Origin: an uncultured Gammaproteobacteria bacterium
Lineage (GTDB): Bacteria; Pseudomonadota; Gammaproteobacteria; Magnimaribacterales; Magnimaribacteraceae
Assembly: GCA_964614345.1 (NCBI GenBank)
Contig: CAZTLP010000004.1
Span: forward strand, 2,491 to 66,490
Length of the DNA: 64,000 bases
Direction of reading: 5' to 3'
The position numbers and the translations under genes were made by a program. The stretch's first letter is position 1; each line of letters begins with the position of its first letter. This document shows, piece after piece, positions 27,333 through 58,529 of this stretch. The notes beneath the pieces were generated by a model. It was not told the origin of the DNA, did not search any database, and saw only the letters and a program-made list of their open reading frames with translations.

Positions 27333-28592
27333 ATGCAACTATCAGAATTAAAAACTTTACCTGTACAAGAACTCATATCTCTTGGGGAGGAGTGCGGTCT
27401 TGATAATGCCTCAAGGATGAAAAGACAAGATGTAATCTTTGGTATTCTAAAGAATAAGGCAAAGCAAGGAGAGGATATTGACGGCGGAGGTGTTTTAGAA
27501 ATACTTCAAGATGGATTTGGTTTTTTAAGATCGACTGATTCTTCATATTTAGCTGGGCCAGATGATATTTATGTTTCACCCAGTCAGATAAGAAGATTTG
27601 GATTGAGAACAGGGGATACTATCCAAGGGAAGATTCGACCTCCAAAAGAAGGGGAAAGGTATTTTGCAATACTAAAAATAGAAGAAATTAATTTTGAAAA
27701 ACCAGATAAAGCTAAAAATAAGGTTTCCTTTGAAAATTTAACTCCACTGTTTCCTGATCAAAGAATGGTTTTAGAATCAGGAAGTGGTAGTACAGAAGAT
27801 CTCTCAGCAAGAGTCATAGATTTAACTGCTCCAACAGGCAAAGGGCAGAGGTCATTAATAGTATCGCCTCCCAAAGCAGGAAAAACTTTATTGCTTCAAA
27901 GCATGGCCCACTCAATTGCTAAAAATAACCCTGAATGCAAGATTATGGTTTTGTTAGTTGATGAAAGACCAGAAGAAGTAACAGAAATGGTCAGATCAGT
28001 TAAAGGAGAGGTAATTGCAAGTACTTTCGATGAACCTGCATCAAGACATGTTCAAGTAGCAGATATGGTAATTAACAAAGCTAGAAGACTTGTTGAGCAT
28101 AAGCACGATGTAGTTATTCTTTTAGATTCAATAACAAGATTAGCCAGAGCTTATAATTCAACTCAAGCAGCTTCTGGGAAGATTCTCACCGGAGGAGTAG
28201 ATGCTAATGCTCTTGAAAAACCCAAAAGGTTTTTTGGAGCAGCAAGAAATATTGAAGGTGGAGGAAGCTTAACAATTATTGCAACTGCACTAATTGATAC
28301 AGGTTCAAGAATGGATGAAGTAATTTTTGAAGAATTTAAAGGAACAGGGAATTCAGAAATAAATTTAGATAGAAAGATTGCGGAAAAACGAGTCTTCCCA
28401 GCTATCAATATTCGAAAAACTGGAACCAGAAGAGAAGATCTACTCACAACTGATGCAGAACTTAGACATATAACTATACTGAGAAAGTTACTTAATGAGA
28501 TGGAGGACACTGCTGCAATGGAATGGGTCCTAGATAAACTAAAGGACTACAAGACCAATGCTGAGTTTTTTGAATCCATGAAGCGAAAGTAA
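27333..28592 (+). CDS. rho: Transcription termination factor Rho
   Basis: The ATG at 27333 ([15 protein letters not shown]) gives the canonical 419 aa. The protein has an N-terminal RNA-binding domain, the Walker A motif PPKAGKT and the Rho C-terminal blocks. The GTG at 27288 in the ORF track adds a non-homologous extension. Confidence 0.95.
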
Positions 28593-45848: not shown

Positions 45849-45925
45849 GGGTCTGTAGCTCAGTTGGTCAGAGCGCACCCCTGATAAGGGTGAGGTCGGA
45901 AGTTCAAGTCTTCCCAGACCCACCA
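45849..45925 (+). tRNA. tRNA-Ile (anticodon GAU), with encoded CCA
   Basis: A manual cloverleaf fits. Acceptor GGGTCTG/CAGACCC; D stem GCTC/GAGC; anticodon stem CACCC/GGGTG with loop CTGATAA; T stem GGAAG/CTTCC with loop TTCAAGT; discriminator A plus CCA. Confidence 0.95.
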
Positions 45926-45953
45926 GTTTCCTCAAGTTAGATAAGGGTTTCAG

Positions 45954-45981
45954 AGAGTTTCATGGTTGAAACTCTTTTTTT
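45954..45981 (+). terminator. Rho-independent terminator downstream of tRNA-Ile
   Basis: AGAGTTTCA (45954-45962), loop TGGT, TGAAACTCT (45967-45975), followed by a run of T residues. Confidence 0.6.
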
Positions 45982-45987
45982 ATTTCT

Positions 45988-46005
45988 ATTCACACTTATT
46001 CACAC
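45988..46005 (+). repeat. Direct repeat ATTCACAC x2 (10-bp register), left arm of the mini-island
   Basis: ATTCACAC at 45988-45995 and at 45998-46005. The same octamer occurs twice again at 47430-47453. Confidence 0.7.
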
Positions 46006-46032
46006 AGTAAATAATATGTTCGGATGAACATT

Positions 46033-46052
46033 TTTTGTTCTGTAGAACAAAA
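46033..46052. repeat. Inverted repeat TTTTGTTCT-gt-AGAACAAAA
   Basis: Perfect 9-bp arms with a 2-nt spacer. It shares the core TGTTCTG.AGAACA with the palindrome at 47342-47365. GATGAAC copies flank it at 46023 and 46061. Confidence 0.7.
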
Positions 46053-46072
46053 TTCATTAAGATGAACCTTGT

Positions 46073-46118
46073 ACCTACTTAGCTCAGTTTTGGTAGAGCA
46101 GAAGACTCTTAAGCTCAA
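46073..46118 (+). other. tRNA-like 5' fragment (D-arm-like sequence), probably a degenerate remnant
   Basis: AGCTCAGTTTTGGTAGAGCA at 46081-46100 is a near-canonical D-arm. The following sequence (GAAGACTCTTAAGCTC) does not fold into an anticodon arm, and there is no T-arm. Confidence 0.25.
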
Positions 46119-46152
46119 AAATGCATTCATTAAAGTTTGGTATAGTTAGAAA

Positions 46153-46239
46153 ATGAAAAAAACTTCCTTAACCCTATCCCTCCTGCTAATCCTGTTTGCT
46201 GGTTGTTCATTCAGAAATAATTCCTGCTATATTAATTAA
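46153..46239 (+). CDS. Possible 28-aa mini-lipoprotein ORF
   Basis: MKKTSLTLSLLLILFAGCSFRNNSCYIN has a textbook lipoprotein signal with lipobox LFAGC and an 11-residue mature peptide containing two Cys. The ribosome-binding site is weak. It could be the stub of a truncated gene. Confidence 0.2.
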   Translation: MKKTSLTLSLLLILFAGCSFRNNSCYIN

Positions 46240-46303
46240 TTTTTAGATTTATCTCTTAAAAATAAGTTCCCAATACTATAATTAGAGAATCAGGAACAGG
46301 ATC

Positions 46304-47284
46304 GTGTCAGTAATTGAAGCAGAGAGAATCATTGCCAACCATGAGCGTATGCCTCATTCACCAGAGTATGAGAATGGTTCGGCATACACGCAAGACACGT
46401 ATCGTCCGATTGAGCAAGGTGTAGTGCCAATCACAGATGCTGGGTTTATCCACGCAGATGCAGCTTATGATGTGGTCAGCGCTAGCGCTGGATATATGTT
46501 CCGTTTGCAGGATCACATCAAGCGATTTACAGAATCTTGTGCAAAGTTTAGGTTAGAAAACCCTTACAGTGAGGCTCAAACAGAAGAGATTCTGAACAAT
46601 CTCGTTCGATTGGCCGGATTGAAGGATGCATACATCTGGTGGGCTGTAACGAGGGGTGAACTCGAAGAGGGCGACCGTGTCTCAGCCCAATATAAAAATA
46701 AGTTCTATGCGTTCGTGACGCCCTATATGTTTATTCATGGGGATAAACTCCGAACCCGTGGCGCCAAAGTTAAGATCAGTACCGAATTTAAGAGAATACC
46801 AAAAGAATCAGTAGACCCTACAGCCAAGAACTTCCATTGGATGGATATGAAACTGTCCTTGTTTGAGGCAATTATGTCTGGTGCCGAGTGGTCAGTGCTC
46901 ACCGATTTTGACGGTAATCTCACTGAAGCGCCCGGCTGCAACATATTTCTAATCAAGGATGGTGTGCTCAAGACACCGGATGATGGTTGTCTTGAAGGTA
47001 TCACGCGCCAAACGGTTTTCGATCTTGCCGAAGAACTTGAGGTAAAGCTAGAAGTGACAAAGATTCCGGTGCAGGAACTAGTCGATGCCGATGAAGCATT
47101 CTTAACCTCGACTGCGGGTGGCATTATGCCTGTTACGTCAGTTAACGAACGGCTATTAGGCGGACTCAATGGACCCGGCGAGATAACAACCCAGCTACAC
47201 AACCTCTACTGGGAGAAGCGTTGGGCTGGATGGCTGGGTACGCCGATTGATTACAGATGCGGAGCAACAAAAGAAAAAACGTGA
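46304..47284 (+). CDS. Fold type IV (class IV) aminotransferase, resembling (R)-selective amine transaminases and BCAT/DAAT relatives
   Basis: 326 aa with a GTG start. Blocks recalled as shared with fungal R-selective transaminases: HIKRFTESCAKFRL, DPTAKNFHWMDM, LTEAPGCNIFLIKDGVLKTPD..CLEGITRQTV and TSTAGGIMPVTSV. G+C is markedly higher than in the surroundings. Confidence 0.85.
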   Translation: MSVIEAERIIANHERMPHSPEYENGSAYTQDTYRPIEQGVVPITDAGFIHADAAYDVVSASAGYMFRLQDHIKRFTESCAKFRLENPYSEAQTEEILNNLVRLAGLKDAYIWWAVTRGELEEGDRVSAQYKNKFYAFVTPYMFIHGDKLRTRGAKVKISTEFKRIPKESVDPTAKNFHWMDMKLSLFEAIMSGAEWSVLTDFDGNLTEAPGCNIFLIKDGVLKTPDDGCLEGITRQTVFDLAEELEVKLEVTKIPVQELVDADEAFLTSTAGGIMPVTSVNERLLGGLNGPGEITTQLHNLYWEKRWAGWLGTPIDYRCGATKEKT

Positions 47285-47341
47285 GGAGAAGATAAAAAAA
47301 ACAAGAAAATTCTAAAACCTAACCAAACCTCCCTGCTGCTG

Positions 47342-47365
47342 TTCGTTGTTCTGCAGAACAACGAA
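47342..47365. repeat. Perfect 24-bp palindrome TTCGTTGTTCTGCAGAACAACGAA
   Basis: Self-complementary over all 24 nt and located 58 nt after the aminotransferase stop. It has no trailing T-run, so it is not an obvious terminator. Confidence 0.8.
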
Positions 47366-47429
47366 TTGAGATAAACAATATTTTAGTGTTCACATTTCGC
47401 TGAGAAACGACACAATAAAGTACCAAAAT

Positions 47430-47453
47430 ATTCACACTAGTATTCACACTAGT
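47430..47453 (+). repeat. Tandem direct repeat ATTCACACTAGT x2, right arm of the mini-island
   Basis: Two perfect 12-nt units, ending about 47 nt before the 45-nt tRNA-derived repeat. Confidence 0.8.
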
Positions 47454-47500
47454 TGAATGTAACCCCTATAGGTATAAGGTTTTGATGTACGAACAAGACA

Positions 47501-47545
47501 CTGATAAGGGTGAGGTCGGAAGTTCAAGTCTTCCCAGACCCACCA
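47501..47545 (+). repeat. 45-nt direct copy of the tRNA-Ile 3' end (att scar)
   Basis: Identical to 45881-45925 (anticodon loop through CCA). No matching tRNA 5' half lies upstream of it. Confidence 0.9.
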
Positions 47546-47602
47546 ATTGTTTCATTTATATCTGTGTTATTCTTATTTTTAAATATTAATAAGGAGAAAT
47601 TA

Positions 47603-48337
47603 ATGAAATATTTACTAACTATAATCTTATCATTTGGATGTTTTGCGCTTGCCAATGCTTCTGAACTACCCCCATCAGTCAGTGCAGAATATTTTGGATG
47701 TAAATTGGATGATAATAAGGATTTAAATGATTTAAACACTTGGGTAAAGAAATGGAATAGATGGATGGACTCAAGTGATTTAGGCGAATATGAAGCTAGT
47801 CTTTTAACTCCTTTATATAGATCTCCAAATGACGAGCTCGATTTTATGTGGGTTGGAAGGACTAATAGCTGGAAGGAACTAGCTAGAGGGCAATCAGCTT
47901 ATAGGTCTTCAGGTTTAGCAGATACTTTCCCAGCAAAATCTTGTCCGTTTAGCTTCATTGCTAGGCAGATACCTGTAAACGGAACTGACTTTAGAGATCA
48001 AATGAACCAGGATGAATTTGTTGCAGCATACTGGCTTTGTAACATAGAAAAAGGAAAATCAATTGAAGATGTTTATTCTTTACAAGAGAGAAGAATGAAA
48101 AATATATCTGAAAGTGGAAACGCGATTGCTTCAAGGATTGTTGTTCCAAGACAGGGAACTCCTGAAGCTATAAGAGATTACGATTTTGTAATGCTTTATG
48201 TTTCACCTAGCTTAGAACAGTGGGGAGCTAATGTAGATAACTACGTAACAAATATCCAAGGTTCTGAAGAAGATTCTATGGATGGAGTTTTTAATTGTGA
48301 CCATTCTACTGTCTATGTAGGACGAACTGTAAGATAA
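47603..48337 (+). CDS. Secreted protein of unknown function with an internal two-domain duplication
   Basis: The ATG at 47603 is preceded by AAGGAG (47591-47596). Signal peptide MKYLLTIILSFGCFALANA. Two ~105-aa halves share the pattern aromatic-x-C...W...LDF(M/V)...C. The longer start in the ORF track reads through the att repeat. Confidence 0.6.
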   Translation: MKYLLTIILSFGCFALANASELPPSVSAEYFGCKLDDNKDLNDLNTWVKKWNRWMDSSDLGEYEASLLTPLYRSPNDELDFMWVGRTNSWKELARGQSAYRSSGLADTFPAKSCPFSFIARQIPVNGTDFRDQMNQDEFVAAYWLCNIEKGKSIEDVYSLQERRMKNISESGNAIASRIVVPRQGTPEAIRDYDFVMLYVSPSLEQWGANVDNYVTNIQGSEEDSMDGVFNCDHSTVYVGRTVR

Positions 48338-48342
48338 AAAAA

Positions 48343-48366
48343 AGAGCCCGAAAGGGCTCTTTTTTG
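48343..48366 (+). terminator. Rho-independent terminator
   Basis: GAGCCC-GAAA-GGGCTC hairpin followed by TTTTTT, immediately after the stop at 48337. Confidence 0.8.
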
Positions 48367-48426
48367 GTTGAGGTTAGAAGATTAAATCTTCCTTGACCCA
48401 GAAACTTAATAGCGAGGTAAGATTTA

Positions 48427-49953
48427 GTGATAAAGAGAATTCTATCGTTTTTTACTTTATTTTTGTCGTTCTTATCGCATGCAGAAATAAAAGAATTAAC
48501 TATTCTTCATACCAACGATCTACATTCTCATCTCTTTCCCCATATTGAAACTTGGATAAGTGAAACTAGAGAAGTAGGAGGCTTTGCAAATTTAGCAACT
48601 CTAGTAAAAAGAGAAAAAGCAGCTAACTCAGATACCATCTACATTGATTCTGGAGATTATTTTTCAGGACCCTATGTCAGTACTCTGACAAAAGGTAAGG
48701 CGGTTATTAATTCTATGAATCTTCTTGGTCTTGATGCCGCTTGTATTGGAAATCATGAGTTTGATCATGGTTGGGACAATATGCTTGAGCAAATGCAGGA
48801 AGCTACCTTTCCAATTTTGAATGGCAATATATTTTTTGAAGGCACTAATCAGTTGGTTTGGAATAATCCTTATTTAGTGATAGAAAAAGGCGGCTTAAAA
48901 ATTGGTTTAATCGGCCTTCACGGAAAGTTTGCTTTTTATGACACTATTAATTTCAAGATGACTAAGGGCATCGAAGCCAGAAACGAAGAAGAATATCTAA
49001 GAAAATATATAGCAGAACTTGACCCTATTACTGATTTAATAATTCTCAGTATTCATCAAGGCATGCCAGGAAGACAATCCAGCCTTGGAAAGGTTGACGT
49101 AGAGAGGAGCCTTCGTAAAGACATTATGTTAGCTAAGAACGTTCCAGGCGTAGACGTGATTATTTCAGGACATGCTCATCAAGGCACACCTAAAGCTCTC
49201 CTATCAAACGGAACTATCATAGTTTCAACGAATGCTTATACAACCGAACTAGGAAAGTTAAAAATAAAATATGATACAGACAAAAAGCAAATCATTTCGC
49301 ATTCAAATAAGCTAATAACTGTTTTTGATGATGAAATAGAAGACGACCCAGATATGCTTAGAGAGATTGAGTTTTGGCAAAAGGAAGTAGAAAAAATAGC
49401 TTCAATTCCCGTCTTCACTTCTTCTAAGAAATTGGTTCGAGCATATGGAAAAGAATCAAACATGGGTAATTTATTTGCTGACGCTGTTGCTGCTTCAGAT
49501 GAAAGGATAGATGTTGCAGTTATAAATAGTGGGGCTCTAAGGCAGGATATTGATGCCGGAATTGTAACTAAAGGAGACTTAATCTCTGCTTTTCCTTTCC
49601 CCAATACTTTAGTTATGACTAAGTTGAAAGGTATCCAAGTCAGAGAAATTTTCAACCATGCCGCTGGCATGACAAATGGAGTATTACAAATATCTGAAAA
49701 TTCTAGGTACTCTTTTACCCCCGGTGAACAAGTCCACGAGATCTGGATTAAAGGTGAACTAGTTACAGATGAAGAAGAGTATTGGGTTGCAGCACCAAAT
49801 TTTGTTACTCAAGGTGGTGACGGATATTGGGCATTTCAAGATGCAATAGAATATATCGACACCGGAGTTGTAATTGTAGATGCTGTTGAAGATTTTATGC
49901 AAAACAAAGAAATCTATAGTCCTAAATTTGAGAGCAGAATACTTATTAAGTAA
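48427..49953 (+). CDS. Secreted bifunctional metallophosphatase/5'-nucleotidase (UshA-like)
   Basis: 508 aa with a GTG start and a signal peptide. Calcineurin-like motifs HTNDLHSH, GDYF, GNHEFD and GHAH, plus a C-terminal 5'-nucleotidase domain. Confidence 0.85.
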   Translation: MIKRILSFFTLFLSFLSHAEIKELTILHTNDLHSHLFPHIETWISETREVGGFANLATLVKREKAANSDTIYIDSGDYFSGPYVSTLTKGKAVINSMNLLGLDAACIGNHEFDHGWDNMLEQMQEATFPILNGNIFFEGTNQLVWNNPYLVIEKGGLKIGLIGLHGKFAFYDTINFKMTKGIEARNEEEYLRKYIAELDPITDLIILSIHQGMPGRQSSLGKVDVERSLRKDIMLAKNVPGVDVIISGHAHQGTPKALLSNGTIIVSTNAYTTELGKLKIKYDTDKKQIISHSNKLITVFDDEIEDDPDMLREIEFWQKEVEKIASIPVFTSSKKLVRAYGKESNMGNLFADAVAASDERIDVAVINSGALRQDIDAGIVTKGDLISAFPFPNTLVMTKLKGIQVREIFNHAAGMTNGVLQISENSRYSFTPGEQVHEIWIKGELVTDEEEYWVAAPNFVTQGGDGYWAFQDAIEYIDTGVVIVDAVEDFMQNKEIYSPKFESRILIK

Positions 49954-50039
49954 GAAACATAAGTGGTCAATAACTATTAAAGAAATTCAAGCCTTCCCAG
50001 AACCATCTAAAATAGATAAAGTTATTAAAGGAATACGAT

Positions 50040-50444
50040 ATGAGGATTTTAAGAATTACCTTAATTAGTTTACTAGCCCTTTACATCGGTTTAGTTGTTT
50101 TATTTGAATCTTGGTTAGGTTACTCACAACCCACCAATACAAATAGTTTAGTAATTACAACTTTTGATAGTGGGGAAACGAAGGACAGAGTACTTTCGGC
50201 AGTAAATAATGACGGCAAACTTTATGTTTCAGCAAACCATTGGCCTCGTGCTTGGTATAGACAAGCTTTGTCTAATCCCAACGTAGAAGTTTTGTATAAA
50301 GGAGAGAAAAATTCTTATTTAGCTATTTCTGTTGAAGGCGAAGAACATAATAGGCTTATGAAAGAACATGCTCATCCATTAACTTTCAGGATTCTAACGG
50401 GCTTTCCTCCTAGGTACTTTATTCGTTTAGACTTAAAGGACTAA
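50040..50444 (+). CDS. Membrane-anchored small protein, DUF385/PNPOx split-barrel-like
   Basis: 134 aa with an N-terminal TM helix. HWPRAWYRQALSNPNVEVLYKGEK resembles the P.WY.NL.ANP.V.V block of the deazaflavin-dependent nitroreductase-like (DUF385) family, recalled from memory. Confidence 0.45.
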   Translation: MRILRITLISLLALYIGLVVLFESWLGYSQPTNTNSLVITTFDSGETKDRVLSAVNNDGKLYVSANHWPRAWYRQALSNPNVEVLYKGEKNSYLAISVEGEEHNRLMKEHAHPLTFRILTGFPPRYFIRLDLKD

Positions 50445-50497
50445 GTTAACCTTCATCAAACTATTATTAGTTCGTTTTTTATGACAGTATTGATCGT

Positions 50498-51049
50498 ATG
50501 AAGAAATTTTTTGTGTTGTTAGTAAAAACAATAGGTGGAGTTGTCGGTCTAATCGTTTTAGTTGTGTTCTCTATTTTTGCCGTGGCTAGATTCAGCGATG
50601 GTCCGATAGGTGATGGACCGCCTTTAGAAATGGTAACTGCAGGCCCCTTTAAAACAGGCGAGTTACAGGTTAGTGACGATGAACCTGATTGGAGTTTTCT
50701 GAAAGACTATCCTATTGTGCAATTTCAACTTTTGGATCCTCCTCGCTCTCGAACTACTTTTATTATGGAAACTGAAGGGAGAATTTTTATTCCTTCAGGC
50801 TATATGAACAGCACAGTAGGTAAGATCTGGAAGCATTGGCCAATGGAAGCGGAAAAAGATGGCAGAGCCCTTTTAAGAGTAGATGGAAAAATTTATGAAA
50901 GAACGATGGTCCGCATAGAGGAAGGTGAGATCCTAACTGACATTTTAGGAGAGCTAAGCAGAAAATATGCAGGAGGGTTCCCCGTTTCTCAAGAGAATAT
51001 AGATTCTGGAGACTTGTGGATCTTTGAGTTGGAGCCAAGAAAGAATTAA
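50498..51049 (+). CDS. Membrane-anchored hypothetical protein
   Basis: 183 aa with an N-terminal TM helix. I recognise no motif. Confidence 0.45.
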   Translation: MKKFFVLLVKTIGGVVGLIVLVVFSIFAVARFSDGPIGDGPPLEMVTAGPFKTGELQVSDDEPDWSFLKDYPIVQFQLLDPPRSRTTFIMETEGRIFIPSGYMNSTVGKIWKHWPMEAEKDGRALLRVDGKIYERTMVRIEEGEILTDILGELSRKYAGGFPVSQENIDSGDLWIFELEPRKN

Positions 51050-51068
51050 ATTTTTTCCTTAAATTTTT

Positions 51069-51986
51069 TTAAGCACTGATAGTCTTCTCAAGCATTTCAT
51101 CCAGAGTAGTTAGATTAATACCCAGCTCTTTGCTAACAGGCAAAGGGTCAATATCATCGTCATGATCTAACACTCCCAACATAGCCTGAGTTATGGGGGG
51201 TTTGGAAACTAGCACTTCACAAATTTTTGCTAATGTGTAACCAATAAAGAGCGGGAGAGAAAAGACTTTCACTTTTACTCCTAAATTTTTTGCTGCCTTC
51301 ATGATTAGTTTTTCTCGAGTAAGAGAAGTTGGACCAGCAAGAGTCTTAATTCCAGTAGACGAATGACTCTCTTGGAGAGTTCTATTTATATCTATATTTA
51401 TAACATCAATGATATCTTTGGCATAAATGGGTTGCTCTAAACTAAGTTTTCTAAAGGTGAAATTAATTCTGGAAAGAGCATTTTTTTTTAAAGCTTCAAA
51501 AGCATAATCACCTTCTCCCAGTACCATTGGGACTTGCAGGATTAGGGAAGGTATATCGGAATCTAAGAAGAGTTTTTCTGCAAATCCCCTAGAAGAAAAA
51601 CAGGTATTTTCAGAGTCTTCTTTAGCACCCAAAATACTTATATAACAACATTTCTTGATACCACTACCTTTGATAGCTGACACAAGTGCCTTTGTGGTTT
51701 GTTTGTGAACGACATCAAATCTATTGTCTTTATTTTCTTTAATTATGCCCACTAGATGCAGCATATATGTGCATGATCTAGCTAACCCCTTAATGACTTG
51801 CTCATCAAGGTAATCACACTTAACTACTTGAACATCTTGAATATCATGAGCCTGTACGAAACTCATCAAATCATCTTTAGCTTTCTCTGATCTTACTAGA
51901 GCACAAACATCCACTTCCCTTTTGCAGAGCATGAACTTCTTACCTAAATTACCATTAGCACCTGTTACTAAGATTTTGTCTTTCAT
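51069..51986 (-). CDS. NAD(P)-binding epimerase/dehydratase-like (atypical SDR, NmrA/NDUFA9-like)
   Basis: 305 aa with the N-terminal Rossmann motif ILVTGANGNLGKKF. Confidence 0.75.
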   Translation of the reverse strand: MKDKILVTGANGNLGKKFMLCKREVDVCALVRSEKAKDDLMSFVQAHDIQDVQVVKCDYLDEQVIKGLARSCTYMLHLVGIIKENKDNRFDVVHKQTTKALVSAIKGSGIKKCCYISILGAKEDSENTCFSSRGFAEKLFLDSDIPSLILQVPMVLGEGDYAFEALKKNALSRINFTFRKLSLEQPIYAKDIIDVINIDINRTLQESHSSTGIKTLAGPTSLTREKLIMKAAKNLGVKVKVFSLPLFIGYTLAKICEVLVSKPPITQAMLGVLDHDDDIDPLPVSKELGINLTTLDEMLEKTISA

Positions 51987-51990
51987 AATC

Positions 51991-52515
51991 TTATCTAGTT
52001 AATAAAGTCCACAATCTCTCAGACATCGACACTAAAGTTGAAGCAATCAGAACCCAAGCACAAGTAATAAAAAATTTATCAAGTTGATCAAAACTTATGG
52101 CTTGAGAAAAAATACAGATACTCGCCAAAACATAGTAAGCGATTCCATTTGAGCGACCTAAAAAGCTGGTCCTTAACTTATATCCAGATAGTGCTTTGGA
52201 ATCTAAGACATATTGAAGAAAAGAACCTAGTACCAGTATAGGAAGAAGCAATGGTATCCCGTGAGTTTTGTTTAGCACAAATAACAAAGCAGCTACCAAT
52301 AGGGCATCACAAGAATGATCTAAGAGTCCTCCGGTTGCAGTTTCTTGACCCTTCTTTCTTGCAATGGGTCCATCCAGCAGATCACTAAGAATAGCCAGCA
52401 ATAGTAAAAAACTAGCAGTTAACCACCAGTCAGAAAGAATAATCCAGACGATTACAGGCGCAATGATTAATCTAGATAGGCTTAAAGAATTAGCTAAAGT
52501 AAAAGAGATCTTCAC
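51991..52515 (-). CDS. CDP-alcohol phosphatidyltransferase family protein
   Basis: 174 aa, multi-pass. It has the full signature DLLDGPIARKKGQETATGGLLDHSCDAL, which is D(x)2DG(x)2AR(x)8G(x)3D(x)3D. Confidence 0.85.
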   Translation of the reverse strand: MKISFTLANSLSLSRLIIAPVIVWIILSDWWLTASFLLLLAILSDLLDGPIARKKGQETATGGLLDHSCDALLVAALLFVLNKTHGIPLLLPILVLGSFLQYVLDSKALSGYKLRTSFLGRSNGIAYYVLASICIFSQAISFDQLDKFFITCAWVLIASTLVSMSERLWTLLTR

Positions 52516-53490
52516 TTAATTTGATTTATTACCAAATAATTCTTTATTAGCTCTGGGAAGAAACATTAGACCTATCACTGCATTGAATAAAATAAAAAAG
52601 TTATGCTGTAAAAAACCAAAAGCTGCCATTTCCCCTTCATTCTCAGGGAAAAGAATTATCCAAGAGGTTATAGCGGCAGCTCGCATAGGGGTGGGAACTG
52701 TCGCAGCGAAAAATATTACTGGAAGAAGAGGAAGTAGGGTCATTGAAGATACTTGCACACCAAAGAAGCCCAATGCTGTCGAGTAAACAAATACAGCAGC
52801 AATTAATAGGGGTGATCTCAGTAAGAAAAAAGCTCCGTAATGTTTGAGTTTAGCCAATCTGAAGGCATGAAAAATTTCTAAATTTCTTATTCTGTTGTTC
52901 TGAAATAAAGGTCCTCGAAAGAAAAATACCCAAAGGATAAAAAATATTGCTCCACCAATAGCAATATATTGAACCAACCCAAATACTTCAGGTAAATCTT
53001 GACCTCCAATGGTAAAACCTATGGTTGCCCAAACTAATAAATAGAATATTTCACAAAACATTATGAACAGCATTAATGAAGTAACTTCCCATCCAGGTAC
53101 CTGATCACGTCTGTTTAAGTAAAAGGCCATCGCACCTTTCCCAATTTGCTCATTAAACATGGAGATGATGTAAGCACTGGCTCGGATAGGCAAAATGTCA
53201 GTGTATTTAATATCTTTAATAAACCAATTAAGTGCTCTAGTTATGATTAATGTGTCTACGGAAAAATAGAATAGACAGTAACCGGTCATCATTAATAGCC
53301 ACGGAATCCAGTTTACCGCTGCAAAAACAACCAACATGTATTCGATCAGAGTCATGCCTTCTCTTAAGGCAGCTCCATTTAATCTAGTATAGATATAGTA
53401 AAAACACGCTAAAGCAATCCCAATTAGTAAGATCTTTCCAATCCCATTAGACTTTTTAGGATTTACTTCCGGACTTTCAGATGTGCTCAA
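52516..53490 (-). CDS. Polytopic integral membrane protein (possibly UPF0104/flippase-like)
   Basis: 324 aa with a TTG start and about eight hydrophobic segments. Its stop abuts the start of the phosphatidyltransferase gene. The family guess is weak. Confidence 0.55.
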   Translation of the reverse strand: MSTSESPEVNPKKSNGIGKILLIGIALACFYYIYTRLNGAALREGMTLIEYMLVVFAAVNWIPWLLMMTGYCLFYFSVDTLIITRALNWFIKDIKYTDILPIRASAYIISMFNEQIGKGAMAFYLNRRDQVPGWEVTSLMLFIMFCEIFYLLVWATIGFTIGGQDLPEVFGLVQYIAIGGAIFFILWVFFFRGPLFQNNRIRNLEIFHAFRLAKLKHYGAFFLLRSPLLIAAVFVYSTALGFFGVQVSSMTLLPLLPVIFFAATVPTPMRAAAITSWIILFPENEGEMAAFGFLQHNFFILFNAVIGLMFLPRANKELFGNKSN

Positions 53491-53506
53491 TATTTTCTCT
53501 AATTAT

Positions 53507-53528
53507 GGAAGTTCAAGTCTTCCCAGAC
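53507..53528 (+). repeat. 22-nt eroded copy of the tRNA-Ile T-arm/acceptor sequence (old att scar)
   Basis: GGAAGTTCAAGTCTTCCCAGAC is identical to 45898-45919. It lies in the divergent intergenic gap 53491-53556. Confidence 0.75.
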
Positions 53529-53556
53529 TTATAAGTTTAAGTTACATTAGAAGATC

Positions 53557-54000
53557 ATGTTTAATTGGTCAACAATTCTTCCCCAGCCTAATAATAACTA
53601 TTCAGGTTCTAAGATTTCTCTTTATTATCTGGTGTTATTAGCCTGTATGTTTACTTTTCGTGGTTGTGTCCATTATTTTGCTCCGGATGGAGGTAATGGG
53701 ATTATTGCAGGCATACCTCTAGAAACTTACCCGCAAGGAGCTGTCCAAACTATTAATACGTTCGCTGGTGTTTCTGGAAAGTATCATTTGATGGAAGCAG
53801 TATTGGCTTGGTTGATTATTTTTAGATGGAGAGCTTTAATCCCAATTTTTTTTCTATATCTTGGAATAACTGAGATTCTGGGACTTATTTTAATAAATTG
53901 GAAACCCTTACCCGTTACACCACCTGGGGAAATAGGCGCTTATATTTTATTTCCTATTACTTTGGTTGCATTTCTCTTATCTGTCAGACAATCTAAGTGA
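53557..54000 (+). CDS. Small multi-pass membrane protein, unknown function
   Basis: 147 aa with about four hydrophobic segments. Its stop overlaps the GTG start of the next gene. Confidence 0.5.
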   Translation: MFNWSTILPQPNNNYSGSKISLYYLVLLACMFTFRGCVHYFAPDGGNGIIAGIPLETYPQGAVQTINTFAGVSGKYHLMEAVLAWLIIFRWRALIPIFFLYLGITEILGLILINWKPLPVTPPGEIGAYILFPITLVAFLLSVRQSK

Positions 54001-56197: not shown

Positions 56198-57433
56198 TTA
56201 TGAAGAGGGCATCTTGGGCTTAGTTCCTATAATGCCTATTTCTTCAAGTTCGTCTATTTCAGTTTGATTAAATCCTAGAATGTCTTTAAGAACTTCTTGA
56301 TTGTGTTGGCCAAGAGTAGGGGCCGGGGTGTTAATAGGAAGTCTATTTCCATTAACCCTAAAAGGCGCTGAAGGATTTGGCTGATTGCCTACAACAGCTC
56401 GGTCTAGCCATTGCCAAAAGTTTCTAGCATTAAGATGCGGATCGTTAAGTAGGGTAGGCATGGTGTGAGTCGATGCTGCAGGTATTTTAGCTTCCTGCAA
56501 AACATACATTAGTCTTTGAGATTCCTTCGAAGAAGTCCATTCACTGATTGTTTTATCAAGATCTTCAAGCCTAGAGAGTCTATCTGTTAATTCCCCAAAC
56601 TTTTTTAGAGGTGCACCAACCACTTTCTGGAGACTCGACCACTGATCTTCATTTAAGGCTTGAATAACAATCCAATTATCTTCTCCCTCACAAGGATACA
56701 CTCCATTAGGAGCAAAAAATTTAGACTTATTTCCATTTCTTAAGGGCTCTTTACCATTGGCTGTAAATTCAGTAATTCCATGCACCGCCAACGGAAAAAG
56801 TGATTCAACTTGTGATAAGTCTATGAATTGTCCTTTGCCCGTCTTGGCCTGATGTCTTAATGCAATCAAAAGTGCTGAAACTCCATTTAAGCCTGCAACG
56901 GCATCCCCATAAGCTATGTGGTGCATCATAGGAGGATCTGATGACACACCATTAACGTGAGGCAACCCAGAAGATTGCTCAACTGTGGAGCCGTAAGCTC
57001 TATACATTTTCCAAGGCCCAGTTGATCCAAAGGCATGCATGGAAAGTAAAATAATGTCTTCTTTTTCTTTTTTAAATACGTCGTAACTGAAGCCAAGCTT
57101 CGGCAAAACGCTTCCAGAGAAATTTTCCATTACAGCATTAGCTGTTCCAACTAGCCTAAGAAGTATTTCTCTTCCCTTAGGGTTGGATAAATCTAGAGTA
57201 ATGTTTCTATTATTCCTATTAACTGAATTAAAAGCAGGTGACTTTTCTGCACCATCTTCATCAATCCACTCTTGAGTTGCTTCCCAGCTTCGCCACCAAT
57301 CAAAGTTTTCACAACTCTCAACTTTGATCACATCTGCACCTAAATCAGCTAAGTTTCTTGCAGCCAAAGGCCCTGCCCAACCCATACTTAAGTCAATAAT
57401 GCGTATACCTTGTAGAGGTCGATTACTCGTCAT
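56198..57433 (-). CDS. Family III CoA-transferase (CaiB/BaiF)
   Basis: 411 aa. The N-terminal IRIIDLSMGWAGPLAARNLADLGADVIKVE is the family hallmark. Confidence 0.88.
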   Translation of the reverse strand: MTSNRPLQGIRIIDLSMGWAGPLAARNLADLGADVIKVESCENFDWWRSWEATQEWIDEDGAEKSPAFNSVNRNNRNITLDLSNPKGREILLRLVGTANAVMENFSGSVLPKLGFSYDVFKKEKEDIILLSMHAFGSTGPWKMYRAYGSTVEQSSGLPHVNGVSSDPPMMHHIAYGDAVAGLNGVSALLIALRHQAKTGKGQFIDLSQVESLFPLAVHGITEFTANGKEPLRNGNKSKFFAPNGVYPCEGEDNWIVIQALNEDQWSSLQKVVGAPLKKFGELTDRLSRLEDLDKTISEWTSSKESQRLMYVLQEAKIPAASTHTMPTLLNDPHLNARNFWQWLDRAVVGNQPNPSAPFRVNGNRLPINTPAPTLGQHNQEVLKDILGFNQTEIDELEEIGIIGTKPKMPSS

Positions 57434-58529
57434 GGGTAAAATCCTCGGTGTGCTCTCCTAATTCGGCTACCTTGCCTCCCAAGGAAGGCGGAGTTTCCAT
57501 TAATCTAAAGGGGATGCTAGGAACAGTTAACTTACTCTCATCTGGCAAAATTGCTGATGTGAAGGCATCTCGTTCTAAAAACTGATCTACATTTAGAAGT
57601 TCTTCCATAGTTGGAACTCTTGCTAAAGGTATCTTTTGCTCTTGGGCTTTATAGAAGAGATCATTGGAAGTAAAAGTTAATAAACTCTCTTGAATAACAG
57701 GTTCTATTATCTCTATAGCTTGTAATCTTCCTAAAGAAGTTTGGTATTCAGGAACAAAAGCAAATTGCTCCATATTTAGAAGCTTACAAAAGGCATGCCA
57801 TTGACTGGGGGTTAGAACTGTTAACCCGATCCACCCCTCTTTACAAGGGAAAACACCCAATGGGTAAGTAGGAGCAAACCTATTAACACCCAATCTTTTT
57901 CCCTCTAGACCTGTATTGAAAAATGAAACTGCCCCCACCTCTGTAAGACAAAGACAAGCTTCAAAAATACTAGTCTCCAACAATTTAGGGTTTTGATTGT
58001 TTCCTAGTTCCATTCCTATGATTTGTCCTAGGCTTCCTGCAAAGGCTGCCATTCCTCCCACGATCTGAGCCTGGTAGCCTGTTGGAATAATAGGAGGTCC
58101 TTCAATGGAACCTAGTCCACGAAGCATTCCATTTAATGCAAAACATTGTGCATCTGTACCGATAAAGTCTTCGTAATCACCGCCTTTCCCATACCAGCTA
58201 ATTTCGGAAAGAATACTTTTCGCCATTGAAGAAAGTTCTGAATCCTTTCCATTACTTAGAACCAAATCGGCACTGGAAATTAATGTTTTAATGGCGTCTT
58301 TTTTTAGCTTGTCTCTTCTAATGCTGAGCTTTTTGGTATTTAAATAAGCATGCATAGCACTTTCATCCCTTTCGTGAAGGAAAGGTGGAGATTTTCTAGT
58401 TTCAAAACCTTCTTTAGGTTCAAGGTTTATTACTTCAGCACCGTAATCAGAAAAAATTTTAGAACAGTATTCAGTACTTATGGAGCCACTAATATCTACT
58501 ATTCTTAATCCTTCCAGTGCTTTAGACAT
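57423..58529 (-). CDS. Family III CoA-transferase (CaiB/BaiF), second copy
   Basis: 368 aa with LRIVDISGSISTEYCSKIFSDYGAEVINLEP. It overlaps the downstream paralogue by 11 nt. Confidence 0.85.
   Translation of the reverse strand: MSKALEGLRIVDISGSISTEYCSKIFSDYGAEVINLEPKEGFETRKSPPFLHERDESAMHAYLNTKKLSIRRDKLKKDAIKTLISSADLVLSNGKDSELSSMAKSILSEISWYGKGGDYEDFIGTDAQCFALNGMLRGLGSIEGPPIIPTGYQAQIVGGMAAFAGSLGQIIGMELGNNQNPKLLETSIFEACLCLTEVGAVSFFNTGLEGKRLGVNRFAPTYPLGVFPCKEGWIGLTVLTPSQWHAFCKLLNMEQFAFVPEYQTSLGRLQAIEIIEPVIQESLLTFTSNDLFYKAQEQKIPLARVPTMEELLNVDQFLERDAFTSAILPDESKLTVPSIPFRLMETPPSLGGKVAELGEHTEDFTHDE

Follow-up and report, generated by a model that had tools for sequence, protein, structure and literature searches.

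The 64-kb window analysed here (the whole stretch of 64,000 nucleotides) comes from a SAR86 genome, as judged from pssA-based loci. It contains a single tRNA gene, tRNA-Ile(GAU), whose 3' end occurs in five co-oriented, intergenic copies that bound four gene cassettes, termed A to D. The region that they occupy is probably an additive, tRNA-anchored cassette array that was built by site-specific recombination at the last 45 nucleotides (nt) of this gene. The repeats are scars of tyrosine-integrase elements, and the site is a genuine integration hotspot. A first-pass annotation of the sequence had already read the repeats as such attachment (att) scars, and attL, attP and attR junctions together with a circular form, all found in relatives, bear this out.

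The att array in the window and in relatives

The only tRNA found by ARAGORN, tRNA-Ile(GAT), scores 74.7 bits against the Rfam tRNA model, and the pssA-tRNA-Ile synteny is present in SAR86 genomes. The array reads, in order, tRNA, cassette A, copy 2, cassette B, copy 3, cassette C, copy 4, cassette D and copy 5 (Table 1). As first reported, the final part of the tRNA recurs with 45/45 identity as copy 2, where the 32 nt upstream are unlike a tRNA 5' half, and the 22-mer at 45898-45919 recurs 22/22 in copy 5, between a minus-strand open reading frame (ORF) and a plus-strand ORF. No such matches arose in 100 dinucleotide-preserving shuffles. The same annotation had counted three copies and two stacked islands; the actual number is five copies and four cassettes, mononucleotide shuffles having given no match to rival copies 3 and 4 (0 at 28/45 or better and 0 at 18/22 or better). 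Its second island, at 47546-53506, is a composite of B, C and D, which vary independently in relatives. An independent assembly (GCA_030748295.1; loci L149/L157) reproduces the array at 99.8% identity, so the array is not an assembly artefact. A further match at 28382-28403 (GGAAAAACGAGTCTTCCCAGCT; 16/22 to the T-arm core) is at chance level (0.28 expected) and was not counted. Across 45.7-53.7 kb, Rfam gave nothing significant besides the tRNA; matches to HPnc0260 merely reflect the tRNA-antisense 3' part of that model. The G+C content, 41% across cassette A versus 36-38% around it, is too weak a signal to inform.

Relatives were compared by tblastn synteny, with L-numbers denoting loci from metagenome or metagenome-assembled genome (MAG) assemblies. 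In four relatives at 93-94% amino acid (aa) identity (L003, L076, L081 and L095), the tRNA is joined directly to C, whereas A and B are inserted at this point in the window. Because the sequence to the right of copy 3 (ACTTAATAGCGAGGTAAGATTT...) is homologous to that directly 3' of the intact tRNA in these same relatives, copy 3 represents a displaced tRNA end, and A and B represent insertions. The low identity of copy 3 is due in part to the rho-independent terminator of cassette B (GAGCCCGAAAGGGCTC and a T-run, 48337-48366), which overlaps its first ~8 nt. At the position of copy 4, relatives retain a CTGATAA anticodon loop and the T-arm. The T-arm core of copy 5 lies at the homologous position across relatives and decays from 22/22 through 20/22 and 18/22 to 14/22, in agreement with the earlier suggestion that the outermost scar is the oldest.

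Differences between relatives start and stop exactly at att copies. In L005 (84%), the tRNA is followed by two small ORFs and, ~0.7 kb later, by D, with C absent. In L025, D comes ~0.6 kb after the tRNA, followed by an att copy (44/45) and then by C, the reverse of the window order. Cassette D is likewise present in L035, L076 and L095, and in L025 and L108 it has been re-mobilised in front of C or another flank, with an arm of its own and a 44-45/45 att copy. The 22-nt outer copy, first taken as a boundary, is one in the window but not in L025 and L108, where it sits inside the re-mobilised D module. In many clades, the gene that follows the tRNA, or else the final att copy, is C; among the different cargo of L004 and L012 are acyl-CoA dehydrogenases and a sulfatase, together with unknown genes. 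Other pairs of empty and occupied sites are L035 versus L044, and L024, L039 and L100 versus L119, L029 and L053. The particular empty sites that had been predicted were not encountered: in none of the relatives does the tRNA directly adjoin the sequence that follows 47545 or 53528 in the window.

As the first-pass annotation had noted, no integrase is encoded in or beside the array. None was found by Pfam on all long ORFs at 40.7-60 kb, by phmmer with XerD, lambda Int and IntI1 as queries against every window ORF of at least 80 aa, or by tblastn of the window with the SAR86 integrase family described below.

Some arrangements at the tRNA itself differ from that of the window. In a ~70% clade (L010 10783-17687; L011), a siderophore/iron uptake cluster comprising SIP, ABC transporter, FecCD, periplasmic binding protein and TonB receptor genes lies between pssA and tRNA-Ile, and the tRNA is thus not adjacent to pssA. 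In a Red Sea SAR86 MAG (L001 10810-10870), the tRNA breaks off at GGTCGG, where it runs into the signal-peptide region of the 5'-nucleotidase; this probable misassembly or deletion (~75 nt) was set aside as evidence.

Integrase and attachment junctions in relatives

An exact-match scan of metagenome contigs with the 45-mer yielded at least 120 loci. Among the matches listed, to which the following counts refer, there are 81 intact tRNAs and 37 displaced copies, 35 of which were scored. The 78 intact tRNAs with at least 40 nt downstream lead into at least 44 distinct following sequences, and the units between successive copies measure 0.2-8.4 kb (median ~2.2 kb) and are almost all co-oriented. 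Their cargo includes a C5-methylase/MvaI-BcnI restriction pair, an SRA-HNH nuclease, an aromatic hydroxylase/FAA-hydrolase/glyoxalase set, COX1 with cytochrome c, a carbamoyltransferase and many proteins without a Pfam match.

At three loci, an ORF of 350-375 aa that matches Phage_integrase (PF00589, E 7e-17) ends ~60-110 nt before the displaced copy, and integrase-bearing elements occupy the site in L054, L092, L119 and L136-L148. The family is small, with ~16 close clusters among 5.8 billion proteins. Its conserved residues are R214, K239, H293, R/K296, H319 and Y328, and the SAR86 integrases carry RHK where the tyrosine-recombinase motif expects LGH. The closest solved relative by sequence is XerA (E 2e-9). 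In an AlphaFold model (predicted local distance difference test, pLDDT, 83), an N-terminal three-stranded sheet and helix are followed by a helical core-binding domain and a catalytic domain; this predicted fold best matches that of full-length lambda Int, including its N-terminal beta-sheet domain. The integrase-bearing elements are ~8-10 kb long and also encode a small serine recombinase (PF00239) and a helicase/replication-like protein of 678-740 aa, which matches PHROG 4913 'replication' (E 5e-8) and, weakly and below threshold, Pfam Herpes_ori_bp and DEAD. Relaxase and type IV secretion genes are lacking in every integrase-bearing relative.

The junctions of one such element reveal where the strands are exchanged. 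L142 holds the integrated copy, in the order tRNA, element, Int and displaced copy; L143 and L144 carry the attP junction, and L145, from another sample, carries attR. The five junction sequences of L142-L145 align as attL, attP and attR should. Since attL and attP share an element-type T-arm and attR has the host-type T-arm, the crossover falls in CTGATAAGGGTGAGGTCGG and the element donates a new 3' part of the tRNA. L143 has a 54-nt terminal overlap, and its corrected length (10,103 - 54 = 10,049 nt) exactly equals that of the integrated element, which identifies it as the circular form. The T-stem variants seen in the tRNA and att copies of the window, L004, L009, L142 and L146 are all compensatory (GGAAG/CTTCC, GGAGG/CCTCC, GGTGG/CCACC, GGAAA/TTTCC and GGTGA/TCACC); the tRNA 3' halves brought by elements can therefore still fold, and the T-arm of the host is rewritten upon integration.

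Relatives of these elements were also sought among viral contigs (IMG/VR). The exact 45-nt att gave 0 matches there; a match to the 22-nt core was a phage-encoded tRNA-Ile only (L015), one to the box of the arms that flank cassette A was a chance match within a coding region (L165), and the integrase profile retrieved only recombinases of 22-31% identity. As none of these searches gave a family member, the elements are not in IMG/VR. Among 10 proteins of L142, PHROGs identified the serine recombinase and the 'replication' protein only, with no capsid, terminase small subunit, packaging or interference genes. A phage satellite or phage-inducible chromosomal island is ruled out by these results.

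Cassettes without an integrase

Among the matches listed, 21 displaced copies have at least 1.3 kb of upstream sequence. Only two of these are accompanied by an integrase; the other 19 are not, and no integrase fragment was detected at the other scored loci of this set. Nearly all displaced copies are nonetheless preceded by the arm layout known from integrase-adjacent arms: a pair of direct repeats (period 11-12) at ~80 nt from the core is followed by a CTATAGG-type box at a distance of ~24 nt and then by the core. The repeat word varies between elements. Of 13 complete elements, 7 have one 7-mer that is present two or more times in each of their arms, against a cross-match rate of 1.9%; none of 20,000 random pairings gave as many as 7.

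Cassette A conforms to this layout. Its right arm is organized like those adjoining integrase genes, with a palindrome (GTTCTGCAGAAC, 47348-47359), two TTCACAC repeats of period 12 (47429-47451) and a CCCTATAGGTATAAGG box (47464-47479). The repeat word TTCACAC matches between the two arms, the left arm comprising a terminator hairpin (~45952-45983), two TTCACAC repeats (45987-46009), a palindrome (GTTCTGTAGAAC, 46037-46048) and a stretch resembling a tRNA 5' half (46071-46112). Both arms place the cassette in a set, termed the alpha family, whose left and right arms are conserved. A copy of cassette A with 98% nt identity is present in L151, where a window-type T-arm lies on its left and the T-arm and flank of another clade on its right. 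The identical aminotransferase protein that cassette A encodes in the window occurs on 10 more short contigs from other samples, and contigs carrying it (L150, L153 and L154) have different left neighbours or a different right arm. An 8.4-kb alpha element in L046 has the same donor/host T-arm signature. In L139, an integrase-bearing element shares an array with integrase-less cassettes, one of them alpha-type.

In relatives, a lambda-Int-type tyrosine integrase recombines the attP of an element with tRNA-Ile, attP being a 45-nt tRNA-identical core between arms with paired direct repeats. Strand exchange takes place between the anticodon loop and the variable loop, 5' of the T-arm, as the junctions of relatives show. 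The element thereby supplies a new functional 3' part of the tRNA, and the previous 3' end of the host is moved to the far side of the insert. Repeated rounds would have pushed older inserts outward in the window, where displaced copies would decay because they are no longer under selection, and the probable order of arrival is D (oldest), C, B and A. Cassette A, in which ~350 nt of intact arms enclose a single cargo gene but no integrase, appears to be non-autonomous, and its excision and integration most likely depend on an integrase that another element of the population supplies in trans. Cassettes B, C and D, which have no arms, seem effectively fixed in this genome, and the D module appears to have been recaptured as a mobile cassette in another lineage. 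The choice that the first-pass annotation left between fixed cargo and cargo mobilised in trans was thus rightly posed, A being apparently mobilisable in trans and B-D apparently fixed.

A wider reading, which is put forward tentatively and with somewhat more doubt than confidence, is that SAR86 maintains an integron-like cassette economy on tRNA-Ile. Integrase-less mini-elements with ~350 nt of lambda-type arms, element-specific paired repeats and 1-6 cargo genes would circulate, moved in trans by rare integrase-bearing elements of ~10 kb, and each insertion would rewrite the 3' half of the tRNA. The alpha family, including cassette A, would need an as yet unsampled integrase lineage.

These readings have to be set against the possibility that all four segments, A included, are dead remnants, that is, once-autonomous elements whose integrase was deleted, in the manner of decay described for cis-mobilizable elements (CIMEs), and which now persist by vertical inheritance or move solely through homologous recombination of the conserved flanks. 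Deletion derivatives do arise: in L139 and L022, 3' tails of an integrase (30 and 19 aa, respectively) lie beside intact arms with no integrase body, and some cassettes therefore originate by deletion. The lack of arms around B-D and the failure to find a cognate integrase for the alpha arms also fit such decay. In the alpha family, however, shared arms of ~350 nt enclose seven or more different cargos, in elements of 1-8.4 kb with no conserved protein or backbone gene; the ~195-aa ORFs of two 1-kb alpha elements (L082 and L091), considered as a backbone protein, show no mutual relationship. Copies of cassette A from different samples are 98-100% identical whereas their hosts differ (pssA 84-87% aa), the cassette bears the donor/host T-arm signature expected of site-specific integration, and its arm repeats are still matched between both ends. 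For the array as a whole, a history of dead remnants is considered unlikely.

Still less probable is a replacement-type flexible island, in which content would be swapped by homologous recombination via pssA/tRNA and the conserved genes opposite, the tRNA fragments being incidental old scars. The flanks are indeed conserved, with ilvBHC-pssA on the left and 5'-nucleotidase or PhyH genes on the right, and an indel without nearby att copies lies just downstream, where L005 lacks the pair of family III CoA-transferase genes that the window has between the PhyH and HD genes (56198-58529). Such swapping would not account for differences that begin and end exactly at att copies, for perfect 45-nt copies flanking units of 0.2-8.4 kb, for the existence of attP and circular forms, or for T-arm variants that segregate as a crossover 5' of the T-arm predicts. 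That the repeats are tRNA pseudogenes from tandem tRNA duplication, or assembly artefacts at a repeat, is scarcely credible. The fragments are tRNA-derived, MAG contigs often break at the site and the tRNA of L001 is truncated, but no copy has a 5' half, all copies start at the anticodon loop, conserved non-tRNA arms precede them, and the independent assembly returns the same array.

Several observations weigh against the favoured reading of a site-specific array with a trans-mobilised cassette A. No integrase was found adjoining an alpha-type arm, as marked by TTCACAC, GAACAC or GTGAACAG repeats and the CCTATAGG box; the repeat word of A (TTCACAC, replaced by GAACAC or GTGAACAG in relatives) differs from the G-rich repeats beside all nine sampled integrase genes. 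Two distant integrase matches (P0017 and P0018), considered as the alpha integrase, belong to unrelated elements at other sites. The search for circular forms that had been advised at first pass succeeded for the integrase-bearing element of relatives (L143) but recovered neither a circle of cassette A nor its attP junction (...ACAAGACA / 45-nt core / GTTTCCTCAAG..., or ...GATGTACGAACAAGACA + core + GTTTCCTCAAGTTAGATAAGG...). A clean empty site (tRNA + ATTGTTTCATTTATATC) in an identical background was not found either, the sole hint being 3 nt in L020. The host assignment of L151 rests on a T-arm variant and 10 nt of flank. Since arms are lacking in B, C and D alike, that these originated as elements is deduced only from scars and polymorphisms, and copy 3 (31/45) is more decayed than expected if B arrived after the split from the 94% relatives. 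Finally, every sequence used for comparison comes from a metagenome or MAG assembly, in which repeats can cause breaks or false joins (e.g. L001).

Table 1 Coordinates of the tRNA-Ile(GAU) array and of its cassettes in the 64-kb window.
Feature	Position	Strand	Evidence and remarks
tRNA-Ile(GAU), attachment gene	45849-45925	+	ARAGORN, Rfam; att copy 1 = 45881-45925, anticodon loop to CCA
Cassette A	45926-47500		
Left (P') arm of cassette A, alpha family	45926-46112	+	Conserved in alpha left arms of L056, L082, L088, L091, L093, L099 and L114
Cargo of cassette A: class IV aminotransferase, 326 aa	46304-47284	+	Pfam Aminotran_4, E 1.6e-49
Right (P) arm of cassette A	47337-47500	+	Aligns with right arms of L017, L044, L056, L091, L103 and L133
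att copy 2, 45/45	47501-47545	+	attR of cassette A; tRNA 3' end that would have been displaced by the latest insertion
Cassette B: 244-aa signal-peptide protein (47603-48337)	47546-48358	+	No Pfam match; rho-independent terminator ~48337-48366; no arms
att copy 3, 31/45	48359-48403	+	Intergenic; displaced and decayed tRNA 3' end
Cassette C: 5'-nucleotidase/metallophosphatase (48427-49953)	48404-49963	+	Pfam 5_nucleotid_C, Metallophos; no arms
att copy 4, 26/45	49964-50008	+	Intergenic; T-arm core 18/22; old scar between C and D
Cassette D, five genes	50009-53489	mixed	Pfam
D gene, F420H2_quin_red-like	50040-50444	+	
D gene, 183-aa protein of unknown function	50498-51049	+	
D gene, NmrA-like	51069-51986	-	
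D gene, CDP-alcohol phosphatidyltransferase	51991-52515	-	
D gene (D5), 324-aa protein of unknown function	52516-53490	-	Next ORF beyond copy 5 (R1): 53557-54000 (+)
att copy 5, 28/45	53490-53534	+	D5/R1 divergent intergenic region; T-arm core 53507-53528, 22/22; oldest scar

Further features of the cassettes concern their arms and cargo. The stretch at 46071-46112 (GTACCTACTTAGCTCAGTTTTGGTAGAGCAGAAGACTCTTAA) resembles a tRNA 5' half that ends in a Lys(CTT)-like anticodon loop, and L091 and L099 conserve it in their alpha left arms; it receives no score from the Rfam tRNA model and may be a second att remnant. A 29-codon ORF at 46153-46239 (28 aa and stop) encodes solely a lipoprotein-type signal peptide (MKKTSLTLSLLLILFAGCS...) and looks like the stump of an earlier cargo gene. 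At the matching position, the alpha element of L091 encodes a full secreted protein with a similar signal. In L139 (9640-9718), the CCTATAGGTATAAGG box of alpha right arms is inverted (AAACCTTATACCTAAGGG) beside ATGAACAC repeats, and this box may be a symmetric accessory-protein site. The L020 contig, 99-100% identical to the window over ilvB-pssA, ends 3 nt past the tRNA with ATT after the CCA, versus GTT at the left arm of A, which hints that cassette A is absent from this near-identical genome. The cassette B protein was found only in the same population (L157), and B is absent from the 93-94% relatives.

Relation to known systems and significance

As an additive island anchored on a tRNA, the locus is of a known kind, and both its host and its integrase family are new; no description of the SAR86 tRNA-Ile system was found in the literature searched. 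As in lambda-type heterobivalent integrase systems, the block of identity spans the tRNA from its anticodon loop through the CCA, the integrase has three domains, including a predicted N-terminal fold of the arm-binding type, and paired arm repeats lie on both sides of the core. The SAR86 family differs from other such integrases in being small and distinct in sequence. The tRNA sublocation classes described by Williams in 2002 reportedly include crossover in the anticodon loop. The resemblance to integron cassettes is one of function only: small, mostly single-gene, integrase-less units are stacked promoter-proximally and are reordered by excision and re-insertion at the front, D lying before C in L025 and after C in the window. 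Unlike in integrons, there is no IntI (phmmer with IntI1), attI or attC, the cassettes end at cores that derive from the tRNA and have lambda-type arms, and a mobile element carries the integrase; the lack of an IntI1 match and the tRNA-derived boundaries rule out an integron.

Closer parallels are found among elements that accrete at tRNA genes. In the CIMEs of streptococcal systems of integrative conjugative and integrative mobilizable elements, the integrase is lost but attL and attR are kept, and site-specific accretion places them in tandem with functional elements at a tRNA 3' end, where they can be mobilised by the integrase of a neighbour (PMC5704250). Cassette A similarly keeps perfect 45-nt cores and both arms with matching repeats, whereas B-D keep only decayed cores. 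The integrase-less units thus qualify as CIMEs in the operational sense. Unlike CIMEs, the integrase-bearing relatives have no conjugation or relaxase genes, and the cassettes are much smaller (0.2-8 kb). Tycheposons were described in Prochlorococcus and other marine bacteria, with related elements reported in Gammaproteobacteria (Hackl et al., bioRxiv 10.1101/2020.12.28.424599). The SAR86 system shares with them a tRNA-targeting tyrosine recombinase, an element length of ~10 kb, a small serine recombinase, stacked insertions with partial tRNAs between them, further and older partial tRNAs dispersed in the island, and detectable excised forms; a replication-type gene, as in tycheposons, may be represented by the helicase/replication-like protein. 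This likeness is one of element architecture, the SAR86 integrase being Xer-like by sequence and lambda-Int-like by predicted fold. The window departs from tycheposons in that cassettes A-D carry cargo genes only, with no tycheposon hallmark gene. Furthermore, Hackl et al. take integrase-less stretches as remnants, whereas those of SAR86 form families with intact, co-varying arms that outnumber integrase-bearing units by ~10:1.

The flexible genomic island fGI-2 of 'Ca. Methylopumilus' is additive and marked by recurring 20-nt tRNA-Lys repeats (PMC10872708). As far as the available text of that study describes it, fGI-2 resembles the SAR86 locus as a strain-variable island of variable size beside a tRNA, punctuated by tRNA-end repeats and with mostly unknown, metabolic or defence genes as cargo; that text reports no mechanism and no families of non-autonomous elements. 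The SAR86 site differs in its tRNA-Ile(GAU) and 3' 45-nt repeat, and in that an integrase, attP and the arm architecture have been identified. As expected of an additive island, the same locus in related genomes grows by cassettes that are marked with tRNA-end repeats. By analogy, the array appears to be tycheposon/CIME-like, and what distinguishes it is that families of arm-bearing, integrase-less cassettes greatly outnumber autonomous elements.

SAR86 is among the most abundant heterotrophic bacterial groups of the surface ocean and has been cultured only recently, and gene exchange of its streamlined genomes is poorly known. In the locus described here, a 45-nt attachment site, a family of integrases and a circle that represents the excised state, together with numerous small non-autonomous cassettes, offer a testable mechanism. 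These cassettes carry restriction-modification systems, genes for the catabolism of aromatic compounds, oxidase subunits and many unknown genes. Many SAR86 MAG contigs end at or just after tRNA-Ile, and cassette insertion at this site explains why they so often break just after pssA and the tRNA. If trans-mobilisation is true, most gene flow at this hotspot would proceed via elements that encode no recombinase, and integrase-based annotation pipelines would miss such cassettes.

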